This document shows positions 1 through 36,307 of a stretch of DNA of 64,000 bases, one piece after another (position 1 is the first letter of the stretch; every line of letters begins with the position of its first letter). The position numbers were made by a program, and so were the translations under genes. Origin of the DNA: Candidatus Parcubacteria bacterium (GTDB lineage: Bacteria; Patescibacteriota; Minisyncoccia; Phycocordibacterales; PALSA-1337); assembly GCA_039799225.1 (NCBI GenBank), contig JBDLTF010000001.1:42488-106487 (forward strand). The letters are read 5' to 3'. The notes under the pieces were generated by a model that was not told the origin of the DNA, ran no database searches, and saw only the letters and a program-made list of their open reading frames with translations.

Positions 1-253
1 GAGCGATCTCCTGCTCAGATAAACCATTAATAAAGGTTATCTTCTGTTCATCGATGACATACGTACCATTCAGAGGATCTGAAAAGGTTCCTTCATTCCC
101 TGCAATCACCGGTGCTTTCGCTTCATTCAAGAAAGTCTTTACTTCACGATACTGCACATTGATGTAGTACATGAGTACTGGCAAAATAATCAAGAAGAAG
201 ATAGCCGCCGCAAGCTTCGAATACCAAGTTACTTCATTAAATTTTATGGTCAT
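1..253 (-). CDS. N-terminal part of a hypothetical membrane-anchored protein; the gene runs off the window start. Translation begins MTIKFNEVTWYSKLAAAIFFLIILPVLMYY...
   Basis: Open minus-strand frame with an ATG at 251-253 and a hydrophobic N-terminal helix. No family recognised. Confidence 0.4.
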   Translation of the reverse strand, partial: MTIKFNEVTWYSKLAAAIFFLIILPVLMYYINVQYREVKTFLNEAKAPVIAGNEGTFSDPLNGTYVIDEQKITFINGLSEQEIA

Positions 254-268
254 AGATTTTATATATTA

Positions 269-432
269 GGATGGGAGATCGCCCGCGACTCTCACTCGGC
301 TACCCGCCTCGTTCGGTCTGGGCACCGCCTCGCGGTTGCTCGTTGCTACTCGCAACATCGCTCCGGCGTTCGATTCTCCTCTCGCATGACACTCAAGTGT
401 CATGCTTACCTCAGTTAGTATACTAGATTTTG
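269..432 (-). repeat. tRNA-Gly-associated GC-rich element, copy 1. It contains a 118-nt core identical to copy 2, is preceded by the 10-nt mimic ggatgggaga of the tRNA 3' end, and ends in a 9-bp hairpin at 385-406.
   Basis: Direct sequence comparison with 1963-2128. The core at 273-390 equals 1972-2089 at 118/118. GC is about 62% against about 45% in the flanks. The segment GTTCGATTCTCC matches the tRNA T-arm. Confidence 0.6.
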
Positions 433-503
433 TGCGGGATGGGAGAATCGAACTCCCGACCACAGTTTGGAAAACTGTTATTATACCATTTAACTAATCC
501 CGC
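433..503 (-). tRNA. tRNA-Gly (anticodon UCC)
   Basis: Manual cloverleaf: acceptor GCGGGAT/ATCCCGC, anticodon stem ACAGT/ACTGT with loop TTTCCAA, T-arm GGGAGTTCGATTCTCCC. No encoded CCA. Confidence 0.7.
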
Positions 504-558
504 TTGGTTCCGCCATAGTAGCAGATTAACGGGAATTTGGAAATATTTTCACTAAGTG

Positions 559-1014
559 CTATTTCCCTGTATCCTCGTGGTGATGTATCGCGTGTTCCTT
601 CTCAACAACCTCCTTGATGATATCAACTTCTTTTTTCATCTCCCGTATAGCGTCTCTGATCTGTCCTATCTCCTTTTCTTCCTCCTCGATCTCCTTCCCT
701 GTCTTATCAGCAGCTTTCTTCTGATGCTTGAGACCACTCATGAGTATTGTATCTCCAATGAAATAAGATACGAAGAGGCCTGTTGCAAGAAGAATTGCCA
801 CCATCAAGATTAGATTGACTGGCTCATAGAATATAAAACCGAGTACTCCCCCTTTTTTCTGGAGCAAATCTGCTGTGTGCCAAACGCCGCGCCAGAAGAG
901 TACTATCGATGTGGCGCCGATGATTGTATAGATGATTGGATAACGGCTCAAATGGCCACGGACCTTATCCTCGAACCTATCAAAAAATAAAATCACTTTG
1001 CGTATCATGGCCAT
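559..1014 (-). CDS. Small membrane protein with two to three TM helices and a C-terminal charged coiled-coil tail (His-rich end)
   Basis: Minus-strand ORF of 151 aa with hydrophobic segments followed by an EEEEKE-rich tail. Confidence 0.45.
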   Translation of the reverse strand: MAMIRKVILFFDRFEDKVRGHLSRYPIIYTIIGATSIVLFWRGVWHTADLLQKKGGVLGFIFYEPVNLILMVAILLATGLFVSYFIGDTILMSGLKHQKKAADKTGKEIEEEEKEIGQIRDAIREMKKEVDIIKEVVEKEHAIHHHEDTGK

Positions 1015-1101
1015 GATTATATCATGTCGACATGCATCTCTCGAACAAGACAGCGTGCGAACTCGTAGAATTTTCGTCTTTATGCTAGGATGTTCTCACA
1101 A

Positions 1102-1175
1102 CGGAGCGTGGTGTAACGGCTAACATACCTGTTTTGGGAACAGGTGACTCCGGGTTCGAGTCCCGGCGCTCCGAC
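1102..1175 (+). tRNA. tRNA-Pro (anticodon UGG)
   Basis: Acceptor CGGAGCG/CGCTCCG, anticodon stem CCTGT/ACAGG with loop TTTGGGA, T-loop GTTCGAGTC. Confidence 0.7.
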
Positions 1176-1182
1176 ACGAAGT

Positions 1183-1207
1183 GACGACGCAAAAACCTCC
1201 ATTTATG
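1183..1207. terminator. Bidirectional rho-independent terminator aaaaacctcca-ttt-atggaggttttt
   Basis: Perfect hairpin flanked by A-run and T-run, between tRNA-Pro (+) and the yraN-like gene (-). Confidence 0.6.
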
Positions 1208-1228
1208 GAGGTTTTTAGGGACTCGAAC

Positions 1229-1606
1229 CTACAATACAACGTTTTTAAGCCATTTCACGCGAGCTCGCCGTACCGAGATGTCCATGTATACGCATAGGAC
1301 GTGAAACTGGAATTCAGAACCTAGTCCCCTATTCGTATCCTCAAGATAACATTCAATTGTACGTCTAAGCCGTTTCAGCTTGAGCGCATGAACATTATCC
1401 TCAGGACGATGACCGTCAACCGAGTATTCATTTCGGACAACAATGCTCTTTACCTCAAAAAAGTGTGTAATCCCTTCCTTGGTAGCTACAATATCCAATT
1501 CACCCCATTTCTTGAGATAGTTCCGGGTGACGATCGAAAACCCCTGTTTCCGGAGAAATACACAGGCTATATCCTCCCCTTTGTCTCCTTTTGTCCTTGT
1601 ATCCAT
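1229..1606 (-). CDS. yraN: YraN/UPF0102 family putative endonuclease
   Basis: 125 aa. Motifs GEDIA..FL..G and DIVA...HFFEVK are typical of UPF0102. Confidence 0.65.
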   Translation of the reverse strand: MDTRTKGDKGEDIACVFLRKQGFSIVTRNYLKKWGELDIVATKEGITHFFEVKSIVVRNEYSVDGHRPEDNVHALKLKRLRRTIECYLEDTNRGLGSEFQFHVLCVYMDISVRRARVKWLKNVVL

Positions 1607-1962
1607 GTTTTTGCTATTATATGGCTATAAATATAGTGTTTCACGTGAAAGTTTCAACATATTTGTCCTGACTTTTAAAATCGAGGGTATTAAAAATGGC
1701 TCTAAATATAGGTTTTACGACAAAATACCGCATCTGTGGACAAAAAATGGGTCAAAACCACGATAATAAGCCATTATTTGTGTCTTTTATACCCACTACC
1801 CACAGAGTTATCCCCAGTTTGTCTCTATAATTGACGATGTTGAGCCATTTTTTAAGGAAATCCCCAAAAAGGACAGTGGACAATCCTTTAAGTACAGAAA
1901 AAGGCGTAAATGATCAATCTTTCTGATTATTCACGCCTTTCCCTTGGTATCTACGGTCTTGG

Positions 1963-2128
1963 TGCGGGTAGGGAGATCGCCCGCGACTCTCACTCGGCTA
2001 CCCGCCTCGTTCGGTCTGGGCACCGCCTCGCGGTTGCTCGTTGCTACTCGCAACATCGCTCCGGCGTTCGATTCTCCTCTCGCATGACGCGTAGGCGTCA
2101 TGCTTACTTACTCGTAATATTGAGCCTG
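1963..2128 (-). repeat. tRNA-Gly-associated GC-rich element, copy 2. It is preceded by the 14-nt mimic tgcgggtagggaga of the tRNA-Gly(GCC) 3' end, and its hairpin at 2082-2103 carries compensatory changes relative to copy 1.
   Basis: 118/118 identity with copy 1 over 1972-2089. The hairpin gcatgacgc-gtag-gcgtcatgc in copy 2 corresponds to gcatgacac-tcaa-gtgtcatgc in copy 1. Confidence 0.6.
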
Positions 2129-2199
2129 TGCGGGTAGGGAGAATCGAACTCCCATCTCGTCCTTGGCAAGGACGCATTTTACCACTAAACTATACCCGC
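2129..2199 (-). tRNA. tRNA-Gly (anticodon GCC)
   Basis: Acceptor GCGGGTA/TACCCGC, anticodon stem CGTCC/GGACG with loop TTGCCAA, T-arm GGGAGTTCGATTCTCCC. Confidence 0.7.
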
Positions 2200-2324
2200 T
2201 TATATCGACGAACATCCACGAGTATATACTATTCTCAAAATATTTCAAAGGGTTTGGGCTTCTGATTTCGGGCAAGCAGTGCTACTATAGCGATGTTACA
2301 CGTGTAACACACCGATCGAAATTT

Positions 2325-2396
2325 GCCCTCGTGGTGAAATGGATATCACAACTGTCTTCGGAACAGTCGTTGGGGGTTCGAGTCCCTCCGAGGGCA
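2325..2396 (+). tRNA. tRNA-Arg (anticodon UCG)
   Basis: Acceptor GCCCTCG/CGAGGGC, anticodon stem ACTGT/ACAGT with loop CTTCGGA, T-loop TTCGAGT. A perfect 14-bp palindrome gttacacgtgtaac lies upstream at 2296-2309. Confidence 0.65.
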
Positions 2397-2439
2397 CACA
2401 ACATCGTAACGGCTAGAACTATAGCCAAAACTACCTAAT

Positions 2440-3933
2440 ATGGCCTCAAAAATAGCAGGAAACAGCGCTATACCACAGGAAATCACAGCTATTATCGAAA
2501 CTCTCGAAAAAGCTGGTTTTCAGGCATACCTCGTCGGAGGATGCGCACGAGATCTCTTCCTTGGACGTGTTCCAAAGGACTGGGATGTCACAACCAACGC
2601 AAAACCTGAACAAATACAGGCGCTTTTCACGAAAACCGTCTATGAAAACACCTTCGGTACTGTCGCCGTCATAAATGAGGCTACCGAAGATCCTAAGCTC
2701 AGGAATGTTGAAGTAACACCGTATCGTCTCGAGTCAGGGTATTCAGATCGACGCCATCCAGACTCCGTGAAATTCAGCGATAAGATAGAGGATGACCTTC
2801 AGCGCCGTGACTTTACGGTCAACGCGATAGCATTGTCCTTGTCCGATGGGGCTATAAAGGACATAATTGACCTATACGGGGGTTTTGCTGATATAAAGGA
2901 CAAATCCATCAGGACCGTGGGAAAACCTCAGGATCGCTTCAATGAGGACGCTCTACGCATGATGCGTGCGATTCGATTTGCAGTGGAACTAGGTTTCACC
3001 ATAGAAGAGGATACATTCTCGGCTATAAAATCTCTCCATACTACAATTCAGCAGGTATCAACCGAGCGTATTCGCGATGAGTTCGTGAAAATACTCATGT
3101 CACCGAGCCCTAAGAGGGGAATCGAACTCCTTCAGGAGGTTGGTATATTGAAGTACTTTATACCTGAGCTGGAGAAGAGTATTGGTGTTACACAGAATCA
3201 GGCTCACGCTTTCACGGTCTGGGAGCACCTTCTACGTAGTCTCCAGCATGCCGCAGACGAGAACTGGAGTCTGGATATACGAATTTCAGCCCTTTTCCAC
3301 GATATCTCAAAGCCTGAGACGAGGCGTGTTTCACGTGGAACATCTCAACCGACGTTTTACGGCCACGAGGTAGTTGGTTCACGTGAAACACGCAAGATAC
3401 TCGAAAGATTGAAGTTTTCACGTGTAATCATCGAGAAAGCGACGAAAATGGTCCGTTGGCACATGTTTTTCTCAGATACAGGCACAATTACACTCTCAGC
3501 TGTACGCCGTATGATAGTAAACGTAGGGAAAGAGAACATCTGGGACCTTATGAACCTCCGTATCTGTGATCGTATAGGTACTGGTAGGCCGAAAGCTGAT
3601 CCGTATCGTCTGAGGAAGTATAAATCAATGGTTGAAGAGGCTTTGCGTGATCCTATTTCGGTCACCATGCTCAATATTGATGGCAAGAGAATTATGGAGG
3701 TAGGGGACATTCCTGCTGGTCCAAAGATTGGTTTGGTGCTCAATGCGCTCATGGAAGAGGTGCTTGAAGATCCAAAACTTAACACTGCAGAATACCTAGA
3801 GAAAAAGACTCTGGCGCTTTTGGCTTTGCCTGAAAAAACGTTGAAGGAGCTTGCTGAAAAAGGAAAAGAGAAGAAAGGGGAGGCTGAAGAACAGGACCTC
3901 GAAACGATTCGTAAGAGACACCACGTCTCCTAG
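2440..3933 (+). CDS. cca: CCA-adding tRNA nucleotidyltransferase / poly(A) polymerase family protein with a C-terminal HD domain
   Basis: 497 aa. N-terminal GGCARDLFLGRVPKDWDVTT nucleotidyltransferase head motif, RFAVELGF, and an HD-domain-like middle region. Sits immediately downstream of a tRNA cluster in which no tRNA encodes CCA. Confidence 0.8.
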   Translation: MASKIAGNSAIPQEITAIIETLEKAGFQAYLVGGCARDLFLGRVPKDWDVTTNAKPEQIQALFTKTVYENTFGTVAVINEATEDPKLRNVEVTPYRLESGYSDRRHPDSVKFSDKIEDDLQRRDFTVNAIALSLSDGAIKDIIDLYGGFADIKDKSIRTVGKPQDRFNEDALRMMRAIRFAVELGFTIEEDTFSAIKSLHTTIQQVSTERIRDEFVKILMSPSPKRGIELLQEVGILKYFIPELEKSIGVTQNQAHAFTVWEHLLRSLQHAADENWSLDIRISALFHDISKPETRRVSRGTSQPTFYGHEVVGSRETRKILERLKFSRVIIEKATKMVRWHMFFSDTGTITLSAVRRMIVNVGKENIWDLMNLRICDRIGTGRPKADPYRLRKYKSMVEEALRDPISVTMLNIDGKRIMEVGDIPAGPKIGLVLNALMEEVLEDPKLNTAEYLEKKTLALLALPEKTLKELAEKGKEKKGEAEEQDLETIRKRHHVS

Positions 3934-3983
3934 GTTTTTGTCTTAAAAGGACACGAATTAAAGTTATCCCCAGATATGTCCTT

Positions 3984-4012
3984 TACAGACATTTCTATAA
4001 GACATATACTTA
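3984..4012 (+). promoter_or_regulatory. Sigma70-like promoter TTTACA-17nt-TATACT
   Basis: Near-consensus -35 and -10 elements with 17-nt spacing inside a 560-bp noncoding region. It would drive a plus-strand transcript that ends at the terminator at 4390-4437. Confidence 0.4.
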
Positions 4013-4019
4013 TCCCAGA

Positions 4020-4437
4020 TCAGTTTGTTATCCGAGGTGATCGCAGAAAAATAATACGGAAAAAATAATCACGGTTCGCGAGTAAGTTCGGTATTATTTT
4101 TCTGCGATCTAAACAAGCTACTGTTCTTTACACAAAGCATGGGTAGGCTTCCACTATTACGGAAGCGAAGAATATATTTTGATTCGACCTTCAATTGCTG
4201 AAGGGCTTGAATGGCGGTGCATTTTTCCTCAAACACAACTTAGCCTCCTTCGGGAGAGCAACTACACTTTAGGAATCCAATGCACACTGTCACCCCAGGA
4301 ATCGTCTGGTCTTGAATCCAAGGATCACCATTTGATCCCCGAGTCTGTGTGACTCACCAAAGTTCTTTCATTCTTCGCAACCAATCGTAGCCGCATCAAG
4401 CGCTTCCAACTGAACCGCAAGATGCGGCTTTTCTTTT
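4020..4437 (+). ncRNA. Candidate structured noncoding RNA of about 410 nt, identity unknown. Contains an 18-bp-arm inverted repeat at 4037-4110 and ends at a plus-strand intrinsic terminator.
   Basis: No ORF of 60 aa or more. Promoter upstream. Terminator gccgcatc...gatgcggc followed by ttttctttt at 4390-4437. RNase P P4 and tmRNA T-arm motifs were searched by eye and not found. Confidence 0.3.
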
Positions 4438-4440
4438 ACC

Positions 4441-4469
4441 AAAAAAGACCGAAAAAACGGTCTTTTTTA
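4441..4469. terminator. Bidirectional terminator aaaaaagaccg-aaaaaa-cggtctttttt, downstream of xth
   Basis: Perfect hairpin with flanking A-run and T-run. Confidence 0.6.
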
Positions 4470-4497
4470 CTATACAGATTGCTGTTGAGCGGTAGAA

Positions 4498-5292
4498 CTA
4501 TCCAATAGTGATTGAAACGGGGCAATGGTCAGAACCCATGACTTCAGGCAAAATCTCAGCCTTTTTGACCTTCTTTTCGAGAATTTTCGACACCAATACG
4601 TAGTCTATTCTCCAACCGACATTGCGTTCACGAGAATGACCGAAGTGGGACCACCAGGTATAGAATCCATTACCTTTGTTGAACAGACGGAAAGTATCAA
4701 CAAAACCGGCATCGACACAATTCTGGAATCCTTCACGCTCTTCATTAGTGAAACCTTTCAAGCCAACATTTTCCTTGGGACGAGCGAGATCATCAGGGGT
4801 ATGAGCTACATTGAGGTCACCACAGAAGATAACAGGCTTCTTCTGCTCCAATTCCTTACAGTAGGCGAGAAATGCAGGGTCCCAGTGCTTGTGGCGGAGG
4901 GGAACGCGGCTCAAATCATCCTTTGCATTGGGTGTATAGACAGTAACAACATAGAAATCCTCGAATTCTGCGGCTATAACACGGCCTTCCGTACGAGGAT
5001 CGCCATATTCATCAGCTTCAAGGCCAAATTTTGTGCATATATGGTCAGGAATATCGTTTATCACCGCGATTGGCTTGGTTTTGGTGAAGATAGCTGTGCC
5101 TGAATAACCCTTTTTGACCGCCGAGTTCCAATATTCCGTGTATTCGGGGAGATCGATGACTGCCTGGCCTTGCTGAGCCTTGGTTTCCTGCAAACAGAAA
5201 ATATCCGGCTTGTGCTCGTTTATAAAAGGGAGGAGGGCGTCCTTCTTGATGACGGCACGAATGCCATTCACATTCCAGGAGATGATTCTCAT
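4498..5292 (-). CDS. xth: Exodeoxyribonuclease III / AP endonuclease
   Basis: 264 aa. MRIISWNVNGIRA...FCLQETK...GDLNVAH...SDHCPV are hallmark Xth/APE motifs. Confidence 0.85.
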   Translation of the reverse strand: MRIISWNVNGIRAVIKKDALLPFINEHKPDIFCLQETKAQQGQAVIDLPEYTEYWNSAVKKGYSGTAIFTKTKPIAVINDIPDHICTKFGLEADEYGDPRTEGRVIAAEFEDFYVVTVYTPNAKDDLSRVPLRHKHWDPAFLAYCKELEQKKPVIFCGDLNVAHTPDDLARPKENVGLKGFTNEEREGFQNCVDAGFVDTFRLFNKGNGFYTWWSHFGHSRERNVGWRIDYVLVSKILEKKVKKAEILPEVMGSDHCPVSITIG

Positions 5293-5348
5293 GGATGAAA
5301 TATAACATAAAAAGAGTCCTGGGGAGGACTCTTGTGAAAATAGTGAGC

Positions 5349-5918
5349 TTATCTAAAACTATTCAACGCCTCACTTGCAGAAAGTAGCTCTCCCACTCCA
5401 TCTTCCTCAGTGAAATGCCCTTTCGCATGTTCAATAATAATTTTTGGATTCAAAGCTTTTTCGAACGCTTCCTTATTCGCTTCTAACGGCACAGACTTGT
5501 CATTATCAGAGAAAATAGCTACGAACTTATCTGACATCTTGCGTATATTCATAAAATCGATCGGCCTTTCTATCCATGGACGAGCAATGTCTTGTTCTTC
5601 TTGAGTTTCGAGATTGGCGACCTGAAGCCACGGGGCGATCAAGATAAGTCCGCCAAGCTTTGATCCTTTATTCATCTCCAAATACCTGAGGATTGCCTGA
5701 CACCCAATACTGTGACCTATGAAATAGGTATCCTGATCGACATAATATACATTCTCCTCCAAGTGCTTGGTCCACGCGTCGATAGTCGGCACACCGGGGT
5801 TCGGCATATCAAGAACAGTTACCTCAAACCCTGCTTCTGTGCCAACTTTCCCCAGCCAAGAAATAAGAGGTTCTTTTGAACTACCATCCCAACCATGAAC
5901 AATTATAAGTCTTTTCAT
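5349..5918 (-). CDS. Alpha/beta hydrolase of the YdeN/RBBP9-like serine hydrolase family
   Basis: 189 aa. N-terminal IIVHGWDGS, nucleophile elbow GHSIGC, and a C-terminal His. Confidence 0.55.
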   Translation of the reverse strand: MKRLIIVHGWDGSSKEPLISWLGKVGTEAGFEVTVLDMPNPGVPTIDAWTKHLEENVYYVDQDTYFIGHSIGCQAILRYLEMNKGSKLGGLILIAPWLQVANLETQEEQDIARPWIERPIDFMNIRKMSDKFVAIFSDNDKSVPLEANKEAFEKALNPKIIIEHAKGHFTEEDGVGELLSASEALNSFR

Positions 5919-5960
5919 GGGCGTATTATATACTTTTAAAATAAAGTCTGCTTCGAACCC

Positions 5961-6926
5961 CTATCTCTTCTTCCCGTGAAACTGTTTGTGTATCCTCTTG
6001 AGCTCACTATCCGTCACGTGAGTATAGACCTGTGTAGTACTTATATCTGCATGGCCGAGAAGCATCTGCACAGAGCGTATGTCAGCACCATTCCCGAGGA
6101 GGTCAGTGGCGAAGCAGTGTCTGATGACGTGCGGCGTAACGCGCTTGGAAATTCCTGCTTTGATAGCGTATTTCTTAACAATACGTTCGATAGAGCGAGT
6201 CGTGAGGGGAGTATCACCTGGATCGAGTTCATCTTTTTTGCCTTTGCCTGACTTTTTTCCATTGGATTTGAGGGTGCGCTCACTGATTTCAACAAAAAGT
6301 GCTTCGCCCATGTCTTGGCGTGCATCGAGATACTTCTTGAGAGCGGCCTTAGCATCAGAGGAGAGGAAGACAGGGCGAACCTTGTCTCCTTTACCGCGAA
6401 TAGGGAATTCATCAGCAGTGAGGTCTATATCGCGGGTGAGGGAACAGAGCTCAGCTACACGAAGGCCCGTAGAGAAGAGGAGTTCGAGAATAGCAGCATC
6501 GCGCAGAGAAGCAGGGGAATCACCGTCAGGAGCATTGAGCAGGCGACGCAATTCATCGGAGGTAATAAGGTCAATCTGACGATGACCTACCTTGGCGAGC
6601 TCGATCATCTCAGGGGAGAGTGACTTCACGCCTCTACGAGCAAGGTATTTCAAGAATACACGCAGAGCAATGAGGTGATAATTCTGAGTGTTCTTCTTGA
6701 GGGTACGGACCTCGGTACGAGTCTTCCAGCCTGGTTGACGATTGAGCCAGAGGCGGAATTCACGCACTTTCTCTGCAGTAATGTCCTCGGGACCCTTAAT
6801 TTTGGCGAAATTCAAGAACTTAGTGATGAAGAAGTCGTAGTTTCGCACTGTTTTCACAGATCGACCCTTCTCGATCTCTATATATTCAAGGAATTGCTGT
6901 TTAAGGTCTCGGATATTATGCGACAT
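5961..6926 (-). CDS. xerD: Tyrosine site-specific recombinase XerC/XerD
   Basis: 321 aa. C-terminal catalytic motifs R..HCFATDLL, GHADISTTQVYTHV, and a conserved ARG-containing box. Confidence 0.8.
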   Translation of the reverse strand: MSHNIRDLKQQFLEYIEIEKGRSVKTVRNYDFFITKFLNFAKIKGPEDITAEKVREFRLWLNRQPGWKTRTEVRTLKKNTQNYHLIALRVFLKYLARRGVKSLSPEMIELAKVGHRQIDLITSDELRRLLNAPDGDSPASLRDAAILELLFSTGLRVAELCSLTRDIDLTADEFPIRGKGDKVRPVFLSSDAKAALKKYLDARQDMGEALFVEISERTLKSNGKKSGKGKKDELDPGDTPLTTRSIERIVKKYAIKAGISKRVTPHVIRHCFATDLLGNGADIRSVQMLLGHADISTTQVYTHVTDSELKRIHKQFHGKKR

Positions 6927-6978
6927 GGCTCTAGTATAGCTTATTTATACGCATTTCGATGTGGAGAATAGAGAATGC

Positions 6979-7012
6979 TTGACAAAAAATGTGGGTGTGC
7001 TATACTTATAGA
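6979..7012 (+). promoter_or_regulatory. Strong sigma70 promoter TTGACA-16nt-TGcTATACT (extended -10)
   Basis: Consensus -35, an extended -10 TG, and TATACT. Confidence 0.55.
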
Positions 7013-7014
7013 CG

Positions 7015-7171
7015 GTTAGTTATGTTGCACCTGCCAAGACGCGCCAAATCAGGCTCTAATAAAGCCGGAAAGGATCACATACTCACTCGGAACCTTCTGT
7101 CGTATTGAAGGCTAGTCGATAAACACCATGTTACCGCGCCACCTCTTCTAAGACTGTGGCGCGGTTTTTTA
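7015..7171 (+). ncRNA. Candidate small RNA or cis-regulatory leader of about 155 nt upstream of rpsO, ending in a strong intrinsic terminator (ccgcgccac...gtggcgcgg + TTTTTT, 7134-7171)
   Basis: Consensus promoter, no ORF, and a GC-rich terminator about 50 bp before the rpsO start. Possible SRP/4.5S-like motif GCCGGAAAGGA, but not confirmed. Confidence 0.35.
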
Positions 7172-7222
7172 TTTACCGAAATCCTTGCATTCCGACCCCA
7201 TTCATGCTACTATGTATAGGCA

Positions 7223-7492
7223 ATGTTAACTACACGACAAAAGACCAAGATTATCAAGGACATCGCCGTCCACGATAAGGATACTGGCTCAGCAGAGGTC
7301 CAGGTTGCTCTCTTGAGCAAGAGGATCGCTGAACTCACCGATCACCTCAAGAAGCACAAGAAGGACAACCACTCACGCCGCGGACTCCTCGGTATGGTTG
7401 CTGATCGCCAGACACATCTCGTCTATCTCAAGAAGAACCACCCTCGCCGCTACTCGGCAGTCCTCAAGAAGTTGGATCTCAAGAAGAAATAA
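7223..7492 (+). CDS. rpsO: 30S ribosomal protein S15
   Basis: 89 aa. LTDHLKKHKKDNHSRRGLL..MV..R..LL.YL is the canonical S15 signature. Confidence 0.9.
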   Translation: MLTTRQKTKIIKDIAVHDKDTGSAEVQVALLSKRIAELTDHLKKHKKDNHSRRGLLGMVADRQTHLVYLKKNHPRRYSAVLKKLDLKKK

Positions 7493-7617
7493 ACTAGACA
7501 AGGCGCCGCAAGGCGTTTCTTGTTATACTAGTCTCTAGTTACGCATTTTAATATTTAGTTAATCCTGTTTAAGGTTTATTTGTGCACTTTTGCATTTTTA
7601 GCTTTGAACTTTTACAT

Positions 7618-8136
7618 ATGTCAGTTATAAAACACAAAGAACAACGCGTCGGTATATTTATCGATGCACAAAACCTCTATCACAGCGGTCGCAATCTCTA
7701 TCATTCAAAGGTAAATTTCGGCGCTATCGTCAAAGAAGCACTCGATGGGCGCAAGCTTGTCCGTGCGGTCGCCTACGTTATTGCCACCGAATCAGGTGAA
7801 GAAACAAGCTTTTTCGAAGCTCTCGAGAAGATGGGTATTGAAACCAAGGTCAAAGACCTTCAAATCTTCAGCTCAGGCGCCAAAAAGGCGGACTGGGACG
7901 TCGGTATGGCTATCGACGCAGTGAAGCTCTCACCAAAGCTCGATGCAGTTATCCTCGTTACCGGTGACGGCGACTTCTGTCCGCTCGTCGAGTATCTTCA
8001 GATGAATCAGGGTTGCCAAGTCGAGGTTGTCTCGTTCGGCAAGTCTACTTCTGCGAAGCTCATCGAGGTATCAGATCACTTCATGGACCTCGACCAGGGT
8101 TCAGGAAAGTATCTCCTCAGAATGGGGAAGAGGTAG
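7618..8136 (+). CDS. NYN-domain (LabA/DUF88-like) protein, a putative RNase, inserted between rpsO and pnp
   Basis: Motifs VGIFIDAQNLYHS, AVILVTGDGDFCPLV. The start is probably the internal ATG at 7618 (MSVIKHK...) rather than 7582. Confidence 0.65.
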   Translation: MSVIKHKEQRVGIFIDAQNLYHSGRNLYHSKVNFGAIVKEALDGRKLVRAVAYVIATESGEETSFFEALEKMGIETKVKDLQIFSSGAKKADWDVGMAIDAVKLSPKLDAVILVTGDGDFCPLVEYLQMNQGCQVEVVSFGKSTSAKLIEVSDHFMDLDQGSGKYLLRMGKR

Positions 8137-32154: not shown

Positions 32155-32895
32155 CTATTTATTTATATGTTTCTTACGAATATAGAGTTCTTGAGCGAGA
32201 GTGAAGAGAGTGCTTGTTGACCAATAGATAGCGATGATAGCTGCTGCTTGAGGGAATCTGGACGGAATAAGCCAATACGTCGAAGCGAATGCGAGGATAG
32301 GGAGCAAATACTTCATCTGCTTGTTCATCGAGTTCGATATCTGACTTGCGGCATCATTGGTATTCGAAGGAGCTGTAGGCTTTGATGCAAGTGAGTATTT
32401 AAGCTGAAAATACTGTATACCTGCGGTTATAAGCGACAATATAAGACTTTTTTGTGTAAGATCCACGAGACCAAGGAAATGTGTCTTGATTATAGGTACC
32501 GATATGAAGCTATAGAGATATTCAGGATGAATATCTGGAATAATCTTATAGAAGACCGAGATGATAGCGAAGAGAACGGGAAGTTGTATGAAGACAAGGA
32601 GGACACCAGAGAATGGTTTAACACCTTTGGACTTGTAGAGCTCCATAATCTTAAGAGCTTGAGTCTGCTTATCCTTCCCATACTGAGCTCTGATCTGAGC
32701 GGCCTCAGGCTCGATATCCTTCATTTTGACCTGAGTAAGCAAAGAAGCCTTCGAGAGGGGGTAGAGAACGAGCTTCACGAGCACAGTAAACACGATGACA
32801 GCAATACCGACATCAATCCATGGAACAAGGTCCATAATACCGATAAGGCCGTTATAGAGCGGGCGGAATATAATTTCATTGTACATGCCGTACAT
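32155..32895 (-). CDS. yidC: Membrane protein insertase YidC (short Gram-positive-type form)
   Basis: 246 aa. Five TM helices and conserved position downstream of rnpA. Confidence 0.8.
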   Translation of the reverse strand: MYGMYNEIIFRPLYNGLIGIMDLVPWIDVGIAVIVFTVLVKLVLYPLSKASLLTQVKMKDIEPEAAQIRAQYGKDKQTQALKIMELYKSKGVKPFSGVLLVFIQLPVLFAIISVFYKIIPDIHPEYLYSFISVPIIKTHFLGLVDLTQKSLILSLITAGIQYFQLKYSLASKPTAPSNTNDAASQISNSMNKQMKYLLPILAFASTYWLIPSRFPQAAAIIAIYWSTSTLFTLAQELYIRKKHINK

Positions 32896-32896
32896 A

Positions 32897-33232
32897 CTAC
32901 CTCAAAAGACCTGCTTTCACAAAGAGATCCTTGATGTCTGCAGCGATATCAACTTGTTTTGCATTCAACACAGTCTGCTTGGCAAATACTGCAGCATGAA
33001 CACCTGGCTTGATCGATGCTTTGATTGTACGCACAGCTTCATAAGCCTTTCTACGGATCTTATTGCGCATCGTCGCTGTCTTCGATACTTTCTGTGGAGT
33101 TACTGCAGCTACTCGGATATCTGGCATTCCCGATACTGCACGTATGAGAAAAAGGGAAGAGTGGAATACTCTTCCTTTTTCCATAACGGAGTCGAATTGT
33201 TCAACAGAGAGCCTCTGTGAACGTGAAAGCAT
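32897..33232 (-). CDS. rnpA: RNase P protein component
   Basis: 111 aa, basic. Conserved position in the rpmH-rnpA-yidC operon. Confidence 0.8.
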   Translation of the reverse strand: MLSRSQRLSVEQFDSVMEKGRVFHSSLFLIRAVSGMPDIRVAAVTPQKVSKTATMRNKIRRKAYEAVRTIKASIKPGVHAAVFAKQTVLNAKQVDIAADIKDLFVKAGLLR

Positions 33233-33235
33233 GGC

Positions 33236-33370
33236 TTAAACAGCGACGCGAGTGCGTCCCTTTGCGCGGCGGCGAGCAAGAACCTTGCGGCCTGGGGCAG
33301 TCTTCATACGGACACGGAATCCGTGTGACTTTGCGCGCTTGCGCTTGTTCGGGTTATAGGTGAATGACAT
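33236..33370 (-). CDS. rpmH: 50S ribosomal protein L34
   Basis: 44 aa, below the ORF-track cutoff. Manual translation gives [44 protein letters not shown]. Confidence 0.85.
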
Positions 33371-33423
33371 AGGTGCATACTATAAATCAAAACTGATAAT
33401 TTCGCAAGTATTTAGAGTTTCTA

Positions 33424-33541
33424 CTAGAACACAAGGAAAGATGTGTGCAAACTGCCATGTAGGCACAGTGAATTACATATAATGTCCTCCAAGAAACTTT
33501 GCCGGTATGGCAGTTTGCACACATCTTTCCTTGTGTTCTAG
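33424..33541. promoter_or_regulatory. Perfect 35-bp inverted repeat (ctagaacacaaggaaagatgtgtgcaaactgccat, arms at 33424-33458 and 33507-33541) in the rpmH-dnaA intergenic region. Putative oriC or dnaA-promoter element, flanked by DnaA-box-like TTATCAACA.
   Basis: Exact reverse-complement match of 35 nt around a 48-nt spacer. Confidence 0.5.
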
Positions 33542-33628
33542 TTGTCCCCAACTTATCAACATAAATTTTATCTCTCCACAAGTTTGCAAATCTATAAACA
33601 GGTATATACTTACTGGGCATCAAATCCT

Positions 33629-34975
33629 ATGAATGACTTCACGAAAATGTGGCAAACTGCGCTCATAGAGATAGAGACTGCCGTCTCCCAAGCTAATTTT
33701 TCAACCTGGTTCAAAGATATCAAGATACTGCGCGAGGATGAGGGGGTAGTCTATCTCGGGGTTCCGAACTCATTTACTCATGAGTGGCTCCAAAAGAAGT
33801 TCCATAACTCGATTTTGCGTATTTTGCGCCAAATGAATGAGCGTGTTCGTGCTCTTGAGTACGTGATCGTCAAAGAAGAGGGTAAGGGGGGACACCAAGC
33901 CAAGAAGGATGCCTTGAATATGCCTACAATCGCGATGCCTTTGCAGGATTTCTATATAAACAGGGAGGACAACCTCAATCCTCGCTATACATTCGAGTCT
34001 CTGGTCGTTGGACCATTCAATGAAGTCGCTCATGCTGCTTCCCAGAGCGTTGTGAAGGCTCCAGGACAGTCATATAACCCACTCTTCATATACGGACAGA
34101 CTGGTCGTGGTAAGACTCATATGATTCAGGCTGTCGGAAATCAGATAAAGAGCCTATTCCCAGACAAGAAAGTCTTCTATCTAACCTCGGAAAGGTTCGG
34201 TTCTGAGCTTTTTGCAGCAATTCAAGAGGCGAAGGTTCAAGCATTCAAGGATAGATACAGGAAGTATGACGTTATTATTATGGACGACGTTCAATTCTTC
34301 GCAGGAAAGGAGAAATTCCAAGAGGAACTATTCCATTTCTTCAATACATTCTATGATTCTGCTCGTCAGCTCGTATTCTCGTCAGATAAGCACCCAAATG
34401 TCATCCCTGGCCTTGAAGATCGTCTCAAGGGTAGATTCAACGCAGGAATGATTATAGATATACCTGAGCCTGATCAGGAATCCCGTATGATGATTGTGCG
34501 TACGAAGTGTACTCCACACAATATAACCCTCTCTGATGACGTAATCGACTATATAGCATCATCTATAGAGGACAATATCCGCGAGATAGAAGGTATCATC
34601 AATGTGATTGCCTGCCAGACTCAGCTCAAGAACAGGGAACTAAGTCTCAATGAGATTAAGAATATCCTCAAAAACAACGTAAAACCTAAGAAGATGATGT
34701 CTGTAAAGGATGTTGTGAAGATCGTATCTGAGTTCTATAACATCGATGAGGATAGTATATACAACAAAACTCGTCGAAAGGAGGTTGTAAGGCCTCGTCA
34801 GGTAGTCATGTACATCTTAAGAGAGGATTTCGGCATATCATTCCCTTCTATAGGAGAGAAACTTGGAGGAAGAGATCATACGACTGTTATCCACTCATAT
34901 GAGAAGATGCGAGAGGAGATAAAAACTGATCAATTACTCTCTCAGGAGATTACCCAAGTCCGTACGATGCTGTAG
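33629..34975 (+). CDS. dnaA: Chromosomal replication initiator DnaA
   Basis: AAA+ Walker A GQTGRGKTH, box VII, and a C-terminal HTH. The real start is probably MNDFTKMWQ at 33629, not the upstream 33542. Confidence 0.9.
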   Translation: MNDFTKMWQTALIEIETAVSQANFSTWFKDIKILREDEGVVYLGVPNSFTHEWLQKKFHNSILRILRQMNERVRALEYVIVKEEGKGGHQAKKDALNMPTIAMPLQDFYINREDNLNPRYTFESLVVGPFNEVAHAASQSVVKAPGQSYNPLFIYGQTGRGKTHMIQAVGNQIKSLFPDKKVFYLTSERFGSELFAAIQEAKVQAFKDRYRKYDVIIMDDVQFFAGKEKFQEELFHFFNTFYDSARQLVFSSDKHPNVIPGLEDRLKGRFNAGMIIDIPEPDQESRMMIVRTKCTPHNITLSDDVIDYIASSIEDNIREIEGIINVIACQTQLKNRELSLNEIKNILKNNVKPKKMMSVKDVVKIVSEFYNIDEDSIYNKTRRKEVVRPRQVVMYILREDFGISFPSIGEKLGGRDHTTVIHSYEKMREEIKTDQLLSQEITQVRTML

Positions 34976-35200
34976 TTGGGGAAAAGTCTGTGAATAAGTT
35001 GTATATAGAGTAGGAAAAGTCTGTGGGTAAACCGATAAGTAATACACATAAACATCTCAGGAAAAAACCAGATAAAAACTTTCAACAAGATGTTTAAAAT
35101 AAAAAACCTATAGCACTCATATCTGAAGCCATTAAATTAATTTATACACATACCCACAGGACTAATAACGAATGTGTGATTAAATAAATAAAAAACTACT
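34976..35200. promoter_or_regulatory. Putative oriC: AT-rich dnaA-dnaN spacer with DnaA-box-like 9-mers TGTGAATAA, TGTGGGTAA, and CCACAGG on the opposite strand
   Basis: Boxes one mismatch from TTATCCACA, AT-rich runs (the DNA unwinding element), and a position typical of Firmicutes-type origins. Confidence 0.5.
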
Positions 35201-36307
35201 ATGAAGATAGATATTGGATTCAAAAAACTGAAAGACACGATCCAACTCATAGAAAGAGTTGCAGGGAAGCATCAGACATTGCCTGTGCTCTCATGTATTC
35301 TCATAGAAGTAGATAAGAATACTGCCACATTCAAGGCGACCAATCTGGATGTTGGGGTAGAGGTTGTTGTTCCTGTTAAATCAGATGGTTCAGGTACTAT
35401 AGCTGTTCCAGCCCACACTATATCTTCATTCATCTCTCAGGCGAGTGATCAGAATCAAATCATATCTATTGAAGTTATATCAGGAAATGCTCATATCAAG
35501 ACTAATAAGTCGAAAGGAGTTATAAAAACACTTCCAGTAGATGATTTTCCTTCTATACCAAAAGTCTCTGATGGTCAGGAATATTCAATCTCCCCAGAAG
35601 TATTCATTCAGGGATTGAGCTCAGTTTCATACAGCGCATCAATATCGAGTGTAAAGCCAGAACTTTCGAGTATATATGTGTACAAAGATGGGGAATACCT
35701 CACATTTGTGGCGACTGACTCATTCCGTCTTGCTGAGAAAAAGATCAAGAATGGAAGCGGATCGAAGGTTGTTGATACATTGATACCATTTAAGAATACT
35801 CAAGATATTATACGCATACTCCAGAGTATGGGTTCTTCGGTGACAGTTAGAGCGAATAAGAATCTTATCTCATTTGAGAATGATGGGGTATATATAGTAT
35901 CGCGTGTTATTGATGGAGTATTTCCTGATTATAGACAAATTATCCCTAAGGCATTCACTACTGAAGTTGTAGCTCTTAAACAAGATATTCTCAACTCATT
36001 GAAGATATCGAATATTTTCTCTGATAAATTCAATCAAGTTCATCTTACTATAGATCCAAAAGGTAAAATGTTTGAGATACAGACCAAGAATAGTGATATT
36101 GGAGAAAATCAAACACTTGTAGATGCTGCTCTGACAGGGGATAGAATGGAGATTAACTTCAACTATAGATATCTCATAGATGGATTCCAGTCGATAGATG
36201 CCGACAGTGTATCTCTACAACTCAATGGTTTGAATCGTCCTGTGGTCATTAAACCAGTGTCAGGTGACCAAACATTCCTCTACCTAGTGATGCCGATGAA
36301 CAGATAG
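35201..36307 (+). CDS. dnaN: DNA polymerase III beta sliding clamp
   Basis: 368 aa with a three-domain clamp pattern, downstream of dnaA. Confidence 0.85.
   Translation: MKIDIGFKKLKDTIQLIERVAGKHQTLPVLSCILIEVDKNTATFKATNLDVGVEVVVPVKSDGSGTIAVPAHTISSFISQASDQNQIISIEVISGNAHIKTNKSKGVIKTLPVDDFPSIPKVSDGQEYSISPEVFIQGLSSVSYSASISSVKPELSSIYVYKDGEYLTFVATDSFRLAEKKIKNGSGSKVVDTLIPFKNTQDIIRILQSMGSSVTVRANKNLISFENDGVYIVSRVIDGVFPDYRQIIPKAFTTEVVALKQDILNSLKISNIFSDKFNQVHLTIDPKGKMFEIQTKNSDIGENQTLVDAALTGDRMEINFNYRYLIDGFQSIDADSVSLQLNGLNRPVVIKPVSGDQTFLYLVMPMNR

Follow-up and report, generated by a model that had tools for sequence, protein, structure and literature searches.

We analysed a stretch of 64,000 nucleotides (nt) from a Candidatus Parcubacteria bacterium (contig JBDLTF010000001.1), hereafter the window, and concentrated on the gap between cca and xth, which we consider to hold a gene for a structured noncoding RNA (ncRNA). 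The two flanking genes are convergent, the gap between them is 564 bp long, and neither gene requires a promoter inside it. An initial annotation, made from the window alone, had described the gap as lacking open reading frames (ORFs), and this holds: the longest are of 55-57 aa with GTG or TTG starts, and none is kept in relatives. Among 67 oriented gaps of relatives no conserved small ORF was found on either strand, only the promoter DNA aligning as a "peptide". The annotation had also set the gap against intergenic distances of 10-60 nt elsewhere. The median distance is indeed ~40 nt, but the range was over-generalised, as a dozen gaps exceed 200 nt; several of these contain tRNAs, small genes or oriC.

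The features of the locus are listed here; group A is the group of related loci to which the window belongs.

2440-3933, plus strand: cca, with PolyA_pol head, RNA-binding and HD domains
3961-3972, plus strand: DnaA-box-like element AAGTTATCCCCA, with the box itself at 3964-3972, one mismatch from TTATCCACA; the consensus is perfect in relatives
3978-3987, plus strand: extended -35 element GTCCTTTACA, hexamer TTTACA at 3982-3987; nearly invariant in the family
4005-4010, plus strand: -10 hexamer TATACT, 17 nt after the -35 hexamer
4017-4437, plus strand: predicted primary transcript of ~421 nt; putative start at A4017 in a conserved CAGA, 7 nt past the -10 hexamer, and end at the U-tract
4023-4118, plus strand: P1 domain, outer stem 4023-4029/4112-4118, enclosing the invariant CCGAGG (4032-4037) and the variable helix P1a (4039-4061/4087-4109)
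4123-4129, plus strand: Y1, single-stranded GUUCUUU; family consensus G-N-U-C-U-U-U
4141-4166, plus strand: segment GGGUAGGCUUCC, with GGUAGG invariant in group A and a local hairpin GCUUCC/GGAAGC
4165-4173 with 4370-4378, plus strand: P3, a long-range helix of GCGAAGAAU with AUUCUUCGC that closes the central domain
4183-4315, plus strand: central domain, with P4 (4186-4199/4297-4311), P5 (4212-4220/4284-4292) and the hairpin P6 (4243-4249/4252-4259)
4322-4338 and 4341-4355, plus strand: two small hairpins, predicted only, of variable sequence among relatives
4362-4369, plus strand: Y2, a second GUUCUUUC motif immediately 5' of the 3' strand of P3, in group A
4389-4437, plus strand: long terminator-type hairpin GCCGCAUC...GAUGCGGC with an inner hairpin; U-tract at 4430-4437
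4441-4468, both strands: bidirectional hairpin A6-GACCG-N6-CGGTC-T6, 11/11 pairs, 30 nt beyond the xth stop codon
4498-5292, minus strand: xth, Exo_endo_phos family, convergent with cca

Every gap feature described in the initial annotation was recovered, with coordinates differing by 0-2 nt. The promoter TTTACA-17-TATACT lies at 3982-4010 (annotated as 3984-4012), the plus-strand terminator consists of a hairpin at 4389-4429 and the U-tract at 4430-4437 (annotated as 4390-4437), and the separate bidirectional hairpin, with all 11 pairs perfect, spans 4441-4468 (annotated as 4441-4469). The long inverted repeat is present too, although its arms are of 23 nt rather than the 18 proposed, 4039-4061 being 96% complementary to 4087-4109. 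Three things had been overlooked: the DnaA-box-like element upstream of the -35 hexamer, the fact that the promoter module is the most conserved DNA of the gap, and the likely role of the second hairpin as the xth terminator. In a shuffle-based scan of the gap, 2 sites resembled promoters where 1.0 was expected, and 3 resembled terminators where 0.8 was expected. Matches to promoter and terminator consensus sequences are weak evidence in isolation; the proof that the gap features exceed chance lies in the comparative data. Relative to shuffles the fold of the gap has a z-score of -7.9 on the plus strand and -6.4 on the minus strand.

Relatives were gathered by a protein search with Cca, which gave 80 loci of up to ~14 kb from Paceibacteria/Parcubacteria genomes, including Taylor-, Nomura-, Zambryski-, Kaiser- and Adlerbacteria, with cca identities of 58-88%. 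Nearly all have cca, then an ORF-poor gap of 280-1040 nt, then a convergent xth. BLASTN identified 3962-4038, the promoter region, and not the hairpins, as the best-conserved part of the gap; the more distant loci have this region on the other strand, at the end of the gap nearer xth. A promoter module defined by an iterated nhmmer profile matches 75 of the 80 genome loci within 1.1 kb of the cca stop codon, 29 times on the plus strand and 46 times on the minus strand, and points into the gap in either orientation. The exact module pattern matches once per locus. A pattern scan of metagenomes added 120 further contigs, most of which carry cca and/or xth beside the match. Use of the module elsewhere in genomes was considered and rejected, since the metagenome matches outside the cca context are chance hits within coding DNA, with one exception. 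In L081 (metagenome contig Ga0208010_1000100, 8633-8662) the box is followed by GTCCTTTACA, GTCTTTTA and TACAAT; this is the sole match outside the cca context that resembles a real promoter of the RNA-gene type, and what follows it is a leaderless-looking ORF, not an RNA.

With a single module per locus, recurrent cca/xth flanks and orientation flips, the unit acts like an autonomous gene whose orientation, but not position, has switched in the course of evolution. In five loci (L063, L018, L075, L030 and L067) additional small ORFs intervene between the RNA gene and xth. The insert of L063 resembles by eye a ribbon-helix-helix plus RelE/ParE toxin-antitoxin pair, and that of L030 is an ORF of 535 aa. 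The RNA gene continues to adjoin cca despite these insertions, indicating that it is linked to cca and not to xth. The comparisons thus show a putative RNA family with one gene per genome, placed directly after cca, across the Paceibacteria (Parcubacteria) lineage as sampled. Many of the close relatives among TPA_asm entries (L002, L003, L010 and others) are labelled "uncultured Candidatus Saccharibacteria bacterium"; the label seems generic or wrong, the cca genes of these loci being 60-80% identical to those of Taylorbacteria/Paceibacteria loci and the synteny identical.

The promoter module has a fixed order: AAGTTATCCACA, a short spacer, T-GTCCTTTACA, ~16-17 nt, TAnnnT, 5-6 nt, and CAGA(y)C...TCCGAGGT. 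The -35/-10 spacer is of 16-17 nt in 128 of 137 loci, with TAnnnT as the -10 consensus, and frequently holds a GTCCTTTA..TAAAGGAC palindrome. Upstream, the 9-mer TTATCCACA is perfect in 58 of the 80 genome loci, inside the conserved 12-mer AAGTTATCCACA, and is identical to the DnaA-box consensus. Across the 137 loci the distance from the box to GTCC is 3-7 nt in 97 (peak at 5) and 14-16 nt in 40 (peak at 15), and is never 8-13 nt. A spacing that falls into two classes one helical turn apart is characteristic of a bound protein that has to be on the polymerase-facing side of the helix. A canonical DnaA, whose helix-turn-helix domain Bac_DnaA_C reads such boxes, is encoded in the window at 33542-34975. 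At the sequence level, then, we find both a sigma-70-type promoter, its -35 and -10 elements and 16-17-nt spacer conserved in relatives, and a DnaA box, as a consensus 9-mer in an organism whose DnaA has the box-binding domain. The alignments show a sigma-70-like promoter of the form GTCCTTTACA/16-17 nt/TAnnnT, with a phased TTATCCACA upstream. We infer from these data that the 9-mer is a DnaA box and that DnaA may bind it and modulate transcription, the effect probably being activation.

The promoter box is the best-conserved DnaA-type box of the window, better than those of oriC. The oriC region occupies 32155-36307 and comprises yidC (minus strand), rnpA (32897-33232, minus), rpmH (33236-33370, minus), dnaA (33542-34975, plus) and dnaN (35201-36307, plus), with the minimum of the cumulative GC skew at ~32 kb and four degenerate, one-mismatch DnaA boxes at 34887-35150. 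The gap itself was rejected as an origin or a DnaA-titration site: it has a single box, and the origin, at dnaA-dnaN and the GC-skew minimum of ~32-35 kb, is ~30 kb away. Two further observations concern these elements. An inverted repeat at 33423-33542, with 47-nt arms that are 91% complementary and a 26-nt loop, extends precisely to the annotated start of dnaA and may be a regulatory or origin-associated structure. A second DnaA-box-like 9-mer, the same TTATCCCCA variant as in the gap, occurs at 1801-1832 (AGTTATCCCCAGTTTGTCTCTATAAT), in overlap with the -35 position of a promoter-like TATAAT site. This 9-mer lies within an ORF-poor stretch (1607-1957) upstream of a tRNA-Gly-associated element that is described below.

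The gap promoter also differs from those of neighbouring genes. Many genes of the window share its type of -10 element, TATAAT/TATACT, but there it ends 6-8 nt before the ATG, and these genes have no Shine-Dalgarno sequence (for example at 5918, 6926, 10565, 40214, 54559 and 57216). With the -10 so near the ATG and no Shine-Dalgarno sequence, leaderless mRNAs appear to be in wide use in the organism. No ATG, GTG or TTG start lies 6-8 nt downstream of the gap promoter's -10 hexamer, and for this reason, together with the lack of a conserved peptide, a protein-coding gene or leaderless mRNA was rejected.

The RNA itself is predicted to be 360-470 nt long in group A and 215-310 nt in the more distant groups B. 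Alignment of 18 group-A RNAs with MAFFT led to a consensus of 43 pairs in RNAalifold, and compensatory changes occur in 33 of these. In this alignment 91.7% of cells are paired, against 37-47% with slid partners, and the covariation score is 0.457 against ~0.1; for both the group-A and the central-domain pairing, none of 500 shuffles attained the observed values. P3 was overlooked by sequence alignment, and a MAFFT alignment of its joined strands was unusable for pair counting. Cognate and non-cognate duplexes were compared instead, and the cognate ones averaged -17.5 kcal/mol against -9.5 kcal/mol and were the best in 12 of 18 cases. The equivalent helix of group B2 shows compensatory changes. 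Group B2 follows the same plan, with a P1 hairpin, the pyrimidine motif, a P2 hairpin, P3 and the terminator, and 20 of its 34 pairs covary.

A covariance model of the central domain P4-P6 (R1) scores 105 bits at 4183-4315 of the window and finds exactly one match per related locus, always on the promoter strand. It recovers 17 group-A loci outside the training set and four flipped group-B1 loci. The R1 alignment of 35 distinct sequences has double changes in 28 of 30 pairs and 88.7% of cells paired, against 32-52% in slid controls, although this alignment leans towards structure because it is fitted to the model. G-U pairs outnumber A-C appositions by 75 to 27, which fixes the plus strand as the one transcribed into the RNA. 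The comparative helices fit a near-optimal fold of the window RNA (-129.0 kcal/mol, against a minimum free energy of -133.2 kcal/mol). Helices are thus kept by compensatory substitutions beyond controls, as in structured ncRNAs. The initial annotation had proposed a structured RNA of ~410 nt running from the promoter to the plus-strand terminator, and suggested a comparative alignment for covariation; the proposal is borne out by more than 100 related loci, in which the promoter, the 5' end of the RNA, its helices and its terminator are kept, by the compensatory changes that the helices carry in them, by the G-U bias and by the lack of an ORF.

Several parts of the RNA are constrained in sequence as well. 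Double changes occur in 6 of the 7 pairs of the P1 outer helix, and C18, G19 and A20 are invariant. Of 128 RNAs, 108 have the motif GNTCTTT in their first 170 nt, at 11-138 nt from the start (median 54); after shuffling, 9 of 128 do. At the 3' end the hairpin 4389-4429 is followed by TTTTCTTTT, the U-tract being UUUUCUUUU, as in an intrinsic terminator; nearly all loci end in a hairpin of the form (A/G)(A/C)CCGCG...40-55 nt...CGCGG and a U-tract, and the CCGC/GCGG terminator stem is invariant in group A1. The comparisons show a conserved architecture, supported by compensatory changes: P1 with its CCGAGG bulge, GNUCUUU, a P2 region, a P3-closed centre (P4-P6 in group A) and the CCGCG...CGCGG terminator hairpin. 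Two additional interactions, pairing of Y1 with the purine strand of P3 and a pseudoknot between CCGAGG and the terminator loop, are present in some sequences only and were not adopted. The hairpin at 4441-4468 lies outside the conserved RNA. From its position 30 nt past the xth stop codon it is most simply read as the intrinsic terminator of xth on the minus strand, and it may be a back-up stop for the RNA.

The initial annotation had left open whether the RNA was a divergent RNase P RNA, tmRNA or 6S-like RNA or something new, and had called for an Rfam scan. The evidence favours the last of these options. Searched with Rfam 15, the 64-kb window yielded tRNAs only, and no family reached its gathering score in the window RNA or in 16 related loci. 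At E<=10 or E<=5 the RNAs of three divergent members (the window, L043 and L074) gave only chance-level snoRNA and miRNA matches. The RNase P models RF00010 and RF00011 accordingly had no match at the gathering score (window and 16 loci) or at E<=10/E<=5 (the three members), the signal recognition particle (SRP) domain IV models RF00169 and RF01854 had none in the window, the scanned loci or the divergent members, and the Rfam 6S model had none in the window, L043 or L074. ARAGORN found no tmRNA in 1-8000, and no Rfam tmRNA model matched. RNase P RNA, tmRNA, SRP RNA and 6S RNA all have 5' and 3' ends that pair together. In the window RNA they do not: the 5' end is taken up by a local stem (4023-4029 with 4112-4118), the 3' end by the terminator hairpin. 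Similarities to T-box, PyrR-site, Y RNA and tmRNA sequences were rejected, none being conserved across the family. A riboswitch, T-box or leader was excluded as well, because the RNA sits between the 3' ends of convergent genes and its orientation flips while its position stays constant. Our literature searches found no description of such an RNA in the candidate phyla radiation (CPR).

Taken together, we favour, with moderate confidence, the reading that 4017-4437 of the plus strand is an independent gene for a structured ncRNA of an uncatalogued family, expressed from a DnaA-phased promoter and probably acting in trans. We rate it as a new family of the stand-alone, structured bacterial ncRNA kind, with an unusual regulatory context. 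DnaA at the box, upstream and on a constrained face of the helix, would modulate, and probably activate, transcription of the RNA, and such control would couple the RNA level to replication-initiation status. The RNA would work in trans as a protein-binding or ribonucleoprotein (RNP)-type regulatory RNA, its invariant pyrimidine motif or motifs and its internal loops being the candidate contact sites. A short-seed antisense small RNA (sRNA), a cis-regulator or an mRNA is less likely than such a trans-acting, protein-binding or RNP-type RNA. More tentatively, and as a possibility we would not bet on, it may be a DnaA-gated housekeeping RNA class specific to Paceibacteria that serves as an RNP scaffold, protein sequestrator or ribozyme, with GNUCUUU and CCGAGG as the functional contacts.

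Several points weigh against this reading of a DnaA-phased, trans-acting RNA gene. The start, end and expression of the transcript are predictions. The DnaA assignment is drawn solely from consensus identity and phasing, and the window's own copy of the box, TTATCCCCA at 3964-3972, has one mismatch. Apart from weak matches in B1, P4-P6 is confined to group A, the middle of the B2 and B3 RNAs being different and shorter, so that part of the structure is lineage-specific. A scan of the window for mRNA targets of the conserved single-stranded motifs found nothing credible; the best duplex, upstream of the promoter of a leaderless pilB-like gene, involved non-conserved bases and was rejected. Finally, no RNase P RNA was located within the 64-kb window, though rnpA is encoded (32897-33232).

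If the more tentative reading is true, a DnaA-gated RNA would link replication-initiation status to RNA or tRNA metabolism in the ultra-small cells of the CPR. To our knowledge the CPR/Patescibacteria have tiny genomes, very few regulators and almost no characterised ncRNAs beyond rRNA, tRNA and the universal RNPs. An RNA that is kept at one genomic position class-wide, with a covarying multi-domain fold, likely has a central role. The locus offers a testable hypothesis, DnaA as a transcription factor for a structured RNA in Paceibacteria, and the family is a covariance-model target for the annotation of CPR genomes and the mining of metatranscriptomes.

The alternative that survives best leaves the RNA gene in place and changes only its control: TTATCCACA would be the site of another factor, or an extension of the promoter, and the gene would not be coupled to replication. 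Each promoter has a single box, the window copy deviates from the consensus, and the adjacent GTCCTTTA...TAAAGGAC palindrome hints at a further regulator. DnaA-box consensus sequences are conserved across bacteria, however, and most loci match theirs at 9 of 9 positions, within the 12-mer AAGTTATCCACA; the 10-bp periodicity of the spacing indicates a bound protein, and a canonical DnaA with the box-reading domain is encoded. We therefore regard a non-DnaA site as unlikely, if a serious contender.

A base-pairing sRNA acting in trans, with GNUCUUU as a seed for purine-rich mRNA segments, is more doubtful. The RNA has its own promoter and a Rho-independent terminator, carries an invariant single-stranded motif of 6-7 nt and, in group A, a second copy of that motif, all of which would suit such a role. 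Against it, the structure is far larger and more elaborate than that of typical seed sRNAs and is conserved across cca identities down to 58%, the mRNAs are mostly leaderless and offer no Shine-Dalgarno sequence to occlude, and the target scan of the window found nothing convincing. We consider it improbable.

The RNA could also be a functional analogue of 6S RNA or Ms1 that binds RNA polymerase. It is a stand-alone, strongly promoted and clade-wide structured RNA in a reduced genome, and neither the window nor the scanned loci yielded a 6S RNA. The sequences of 6S RNAs are poorly conserved and are frequently missed by Rfam. The fold speaks against this idea: there is no rod with a central bubble and no 5'/3' closing stem, the consensus is multi-domain, with a local 5' hairpin and the 3' terminator, and a length of 215-470 nt with an integral, conserved terminator hairpin is unlike 6S RNA. 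We give this analogue a low probability.

Lower still is the chance that the RNA is the rnpB of the organism, diverged beyond the Rfam models. The presence of rnpA and rpmH means that the organism must have an RNase P RNA, and the window yielded none; with rnpA encoded and rnpB not located, we retain the alternative as a very small probability. A length of 215-470 nt would suit rnpB, as would the neighbourhood of tRNA genes and of cca, itself a tRNA-maturation gene. Diverged RNase P RNAs of the CPR, 10 of 35 of which were missed at standard cut-offs, were nevertheless retrieved by RF00010 below those cut-offs and retained their conserved features (PMC8172020), whereas the three divergent members of the present family gave no alignment to RF00010 or RF00011 even at E<=10. 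No P1 helix joins the 5' and 3' ends, and the family as a whole shows no conservation in the middle of the RNA. The consensus of RNase P helix P4 consists of conserved region (CR)-I GAGGAAAGUCC and CR-V ACAGAA..GGCUUA. The initial annotation had reported no such strands by eye, and both sequences are indeed absent. Within the RNA, GGGUAGGCU, GGAUGAAA and GAAGCC/GGCUUCA may resemble the E. coli L15 region, CR-IV and P4, respectively; they are short and in an order unlike that of RNase P, and the P4-like pairs covary freely (CC/GG, UC/GA, UU/AA) and are not invariant.

The weakest alternative, a gap without a dedicated product that is either a spacer with terminators for cca and xth or the remnant of a decayed gene or small ORF, can draw on the need of convergent genes for terminators, on the hairpin at 4441-4468, which probably serves xth, and on the RNA terminator that abuts the cca stop codon in some group-B loci, but it has a negligible probability given a promoter module better conserved than the flanking protein genes and pointing into the gap even when the orientation flips, internal helices that covary and the lack of a conserved ORF.

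A separate element was observed upstream of cca. It is G+C-rich (~58%) and present in two copies, 271-426 and 1958-2105, which adjoin the minus-strand genes of tRNA-Gly(tcc) (432-503) and tRNA-Gly(gcc) (2128-2199). The copies share 118 identical nt, followed by a hairpin that differs between them by compensatory changes (CATGACAC..GTGTCATG against CATGACGC..GCGTCATG), and each copy has, at its far end, a repeat of the 3' T-stem/acceptor sequence of the tRNA that it adjoins. The element has no Rfam match, and L014, L018, L007 and L077 carry related copies; it is a candidate for a small mobile or tRNA-targeting element or for an unknown RNA.

The closest parallels to the RNA of the cca-xth gap are the orphan large ncRNAs of bacteria. 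The raiA motif RNA is a large structured bacterial ncRNA of this orphan kind, whose biochemical function is unknown (PMC10861870). Like raiA, OLE, ROOL/GOLLD and HEARO, the window RNA is a stand-alone unit of several hundred nt with a covarying multi-helix fold and conserved nucleotides in loops and junctions, and it is restricted to a clade within which it is near-universal. Unlike them, it has no Rfam 15 match, a CPR/Paceibacteria host, a fixed synteny with cca and a DnaA-box-phased promoter. With RNase P RNA it shares a similar size, a neighbourhood of tRNA genes and a housekeeping-like distribution, in a window that encodes RnpA; it differs in failing the Rfam models, in lacking P1 end-pairing and the CR-I/CR-V sequences of P4, and in having a centre that is not family-wide. 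With 6S RNA and Ms1 it has in common a strongly promoted, stand-alone gene of the abundant type and a global role that would be plausible in a small genome, and it differs from them in lacking the rod-and-bubble architecture, the closing stem and any Rfam 6S or Ms1 match.

The promoter likewise has counterparts. DnaA-box-controlled promoters are known from dnaA, nrdAB, sda and similar genes, and here as there a TTATCCACA 9-mer stands beside a sigma-70 promoter in a position consistent with contact to RNA polymerase. The product in the present case would be a structured ncRNA and not a replication or repair protein, and there is a single box with a strict 5/15-bp phasing class-wide. Among ncRNAs, CcnA of Caulobacter is a short base-pairing sRNA that is cell-cycle-regulated, encoded at the origin and linked to CtrA (PMC8959179). 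The window RNA is much larger, lies ~30 kb from oriC and is unrelated to CcnA in sequence; what the two would share is the tie of ncRNA synthesis to the replication and cell-cycle machinery, which for the window RNA is suggested by its promoter.

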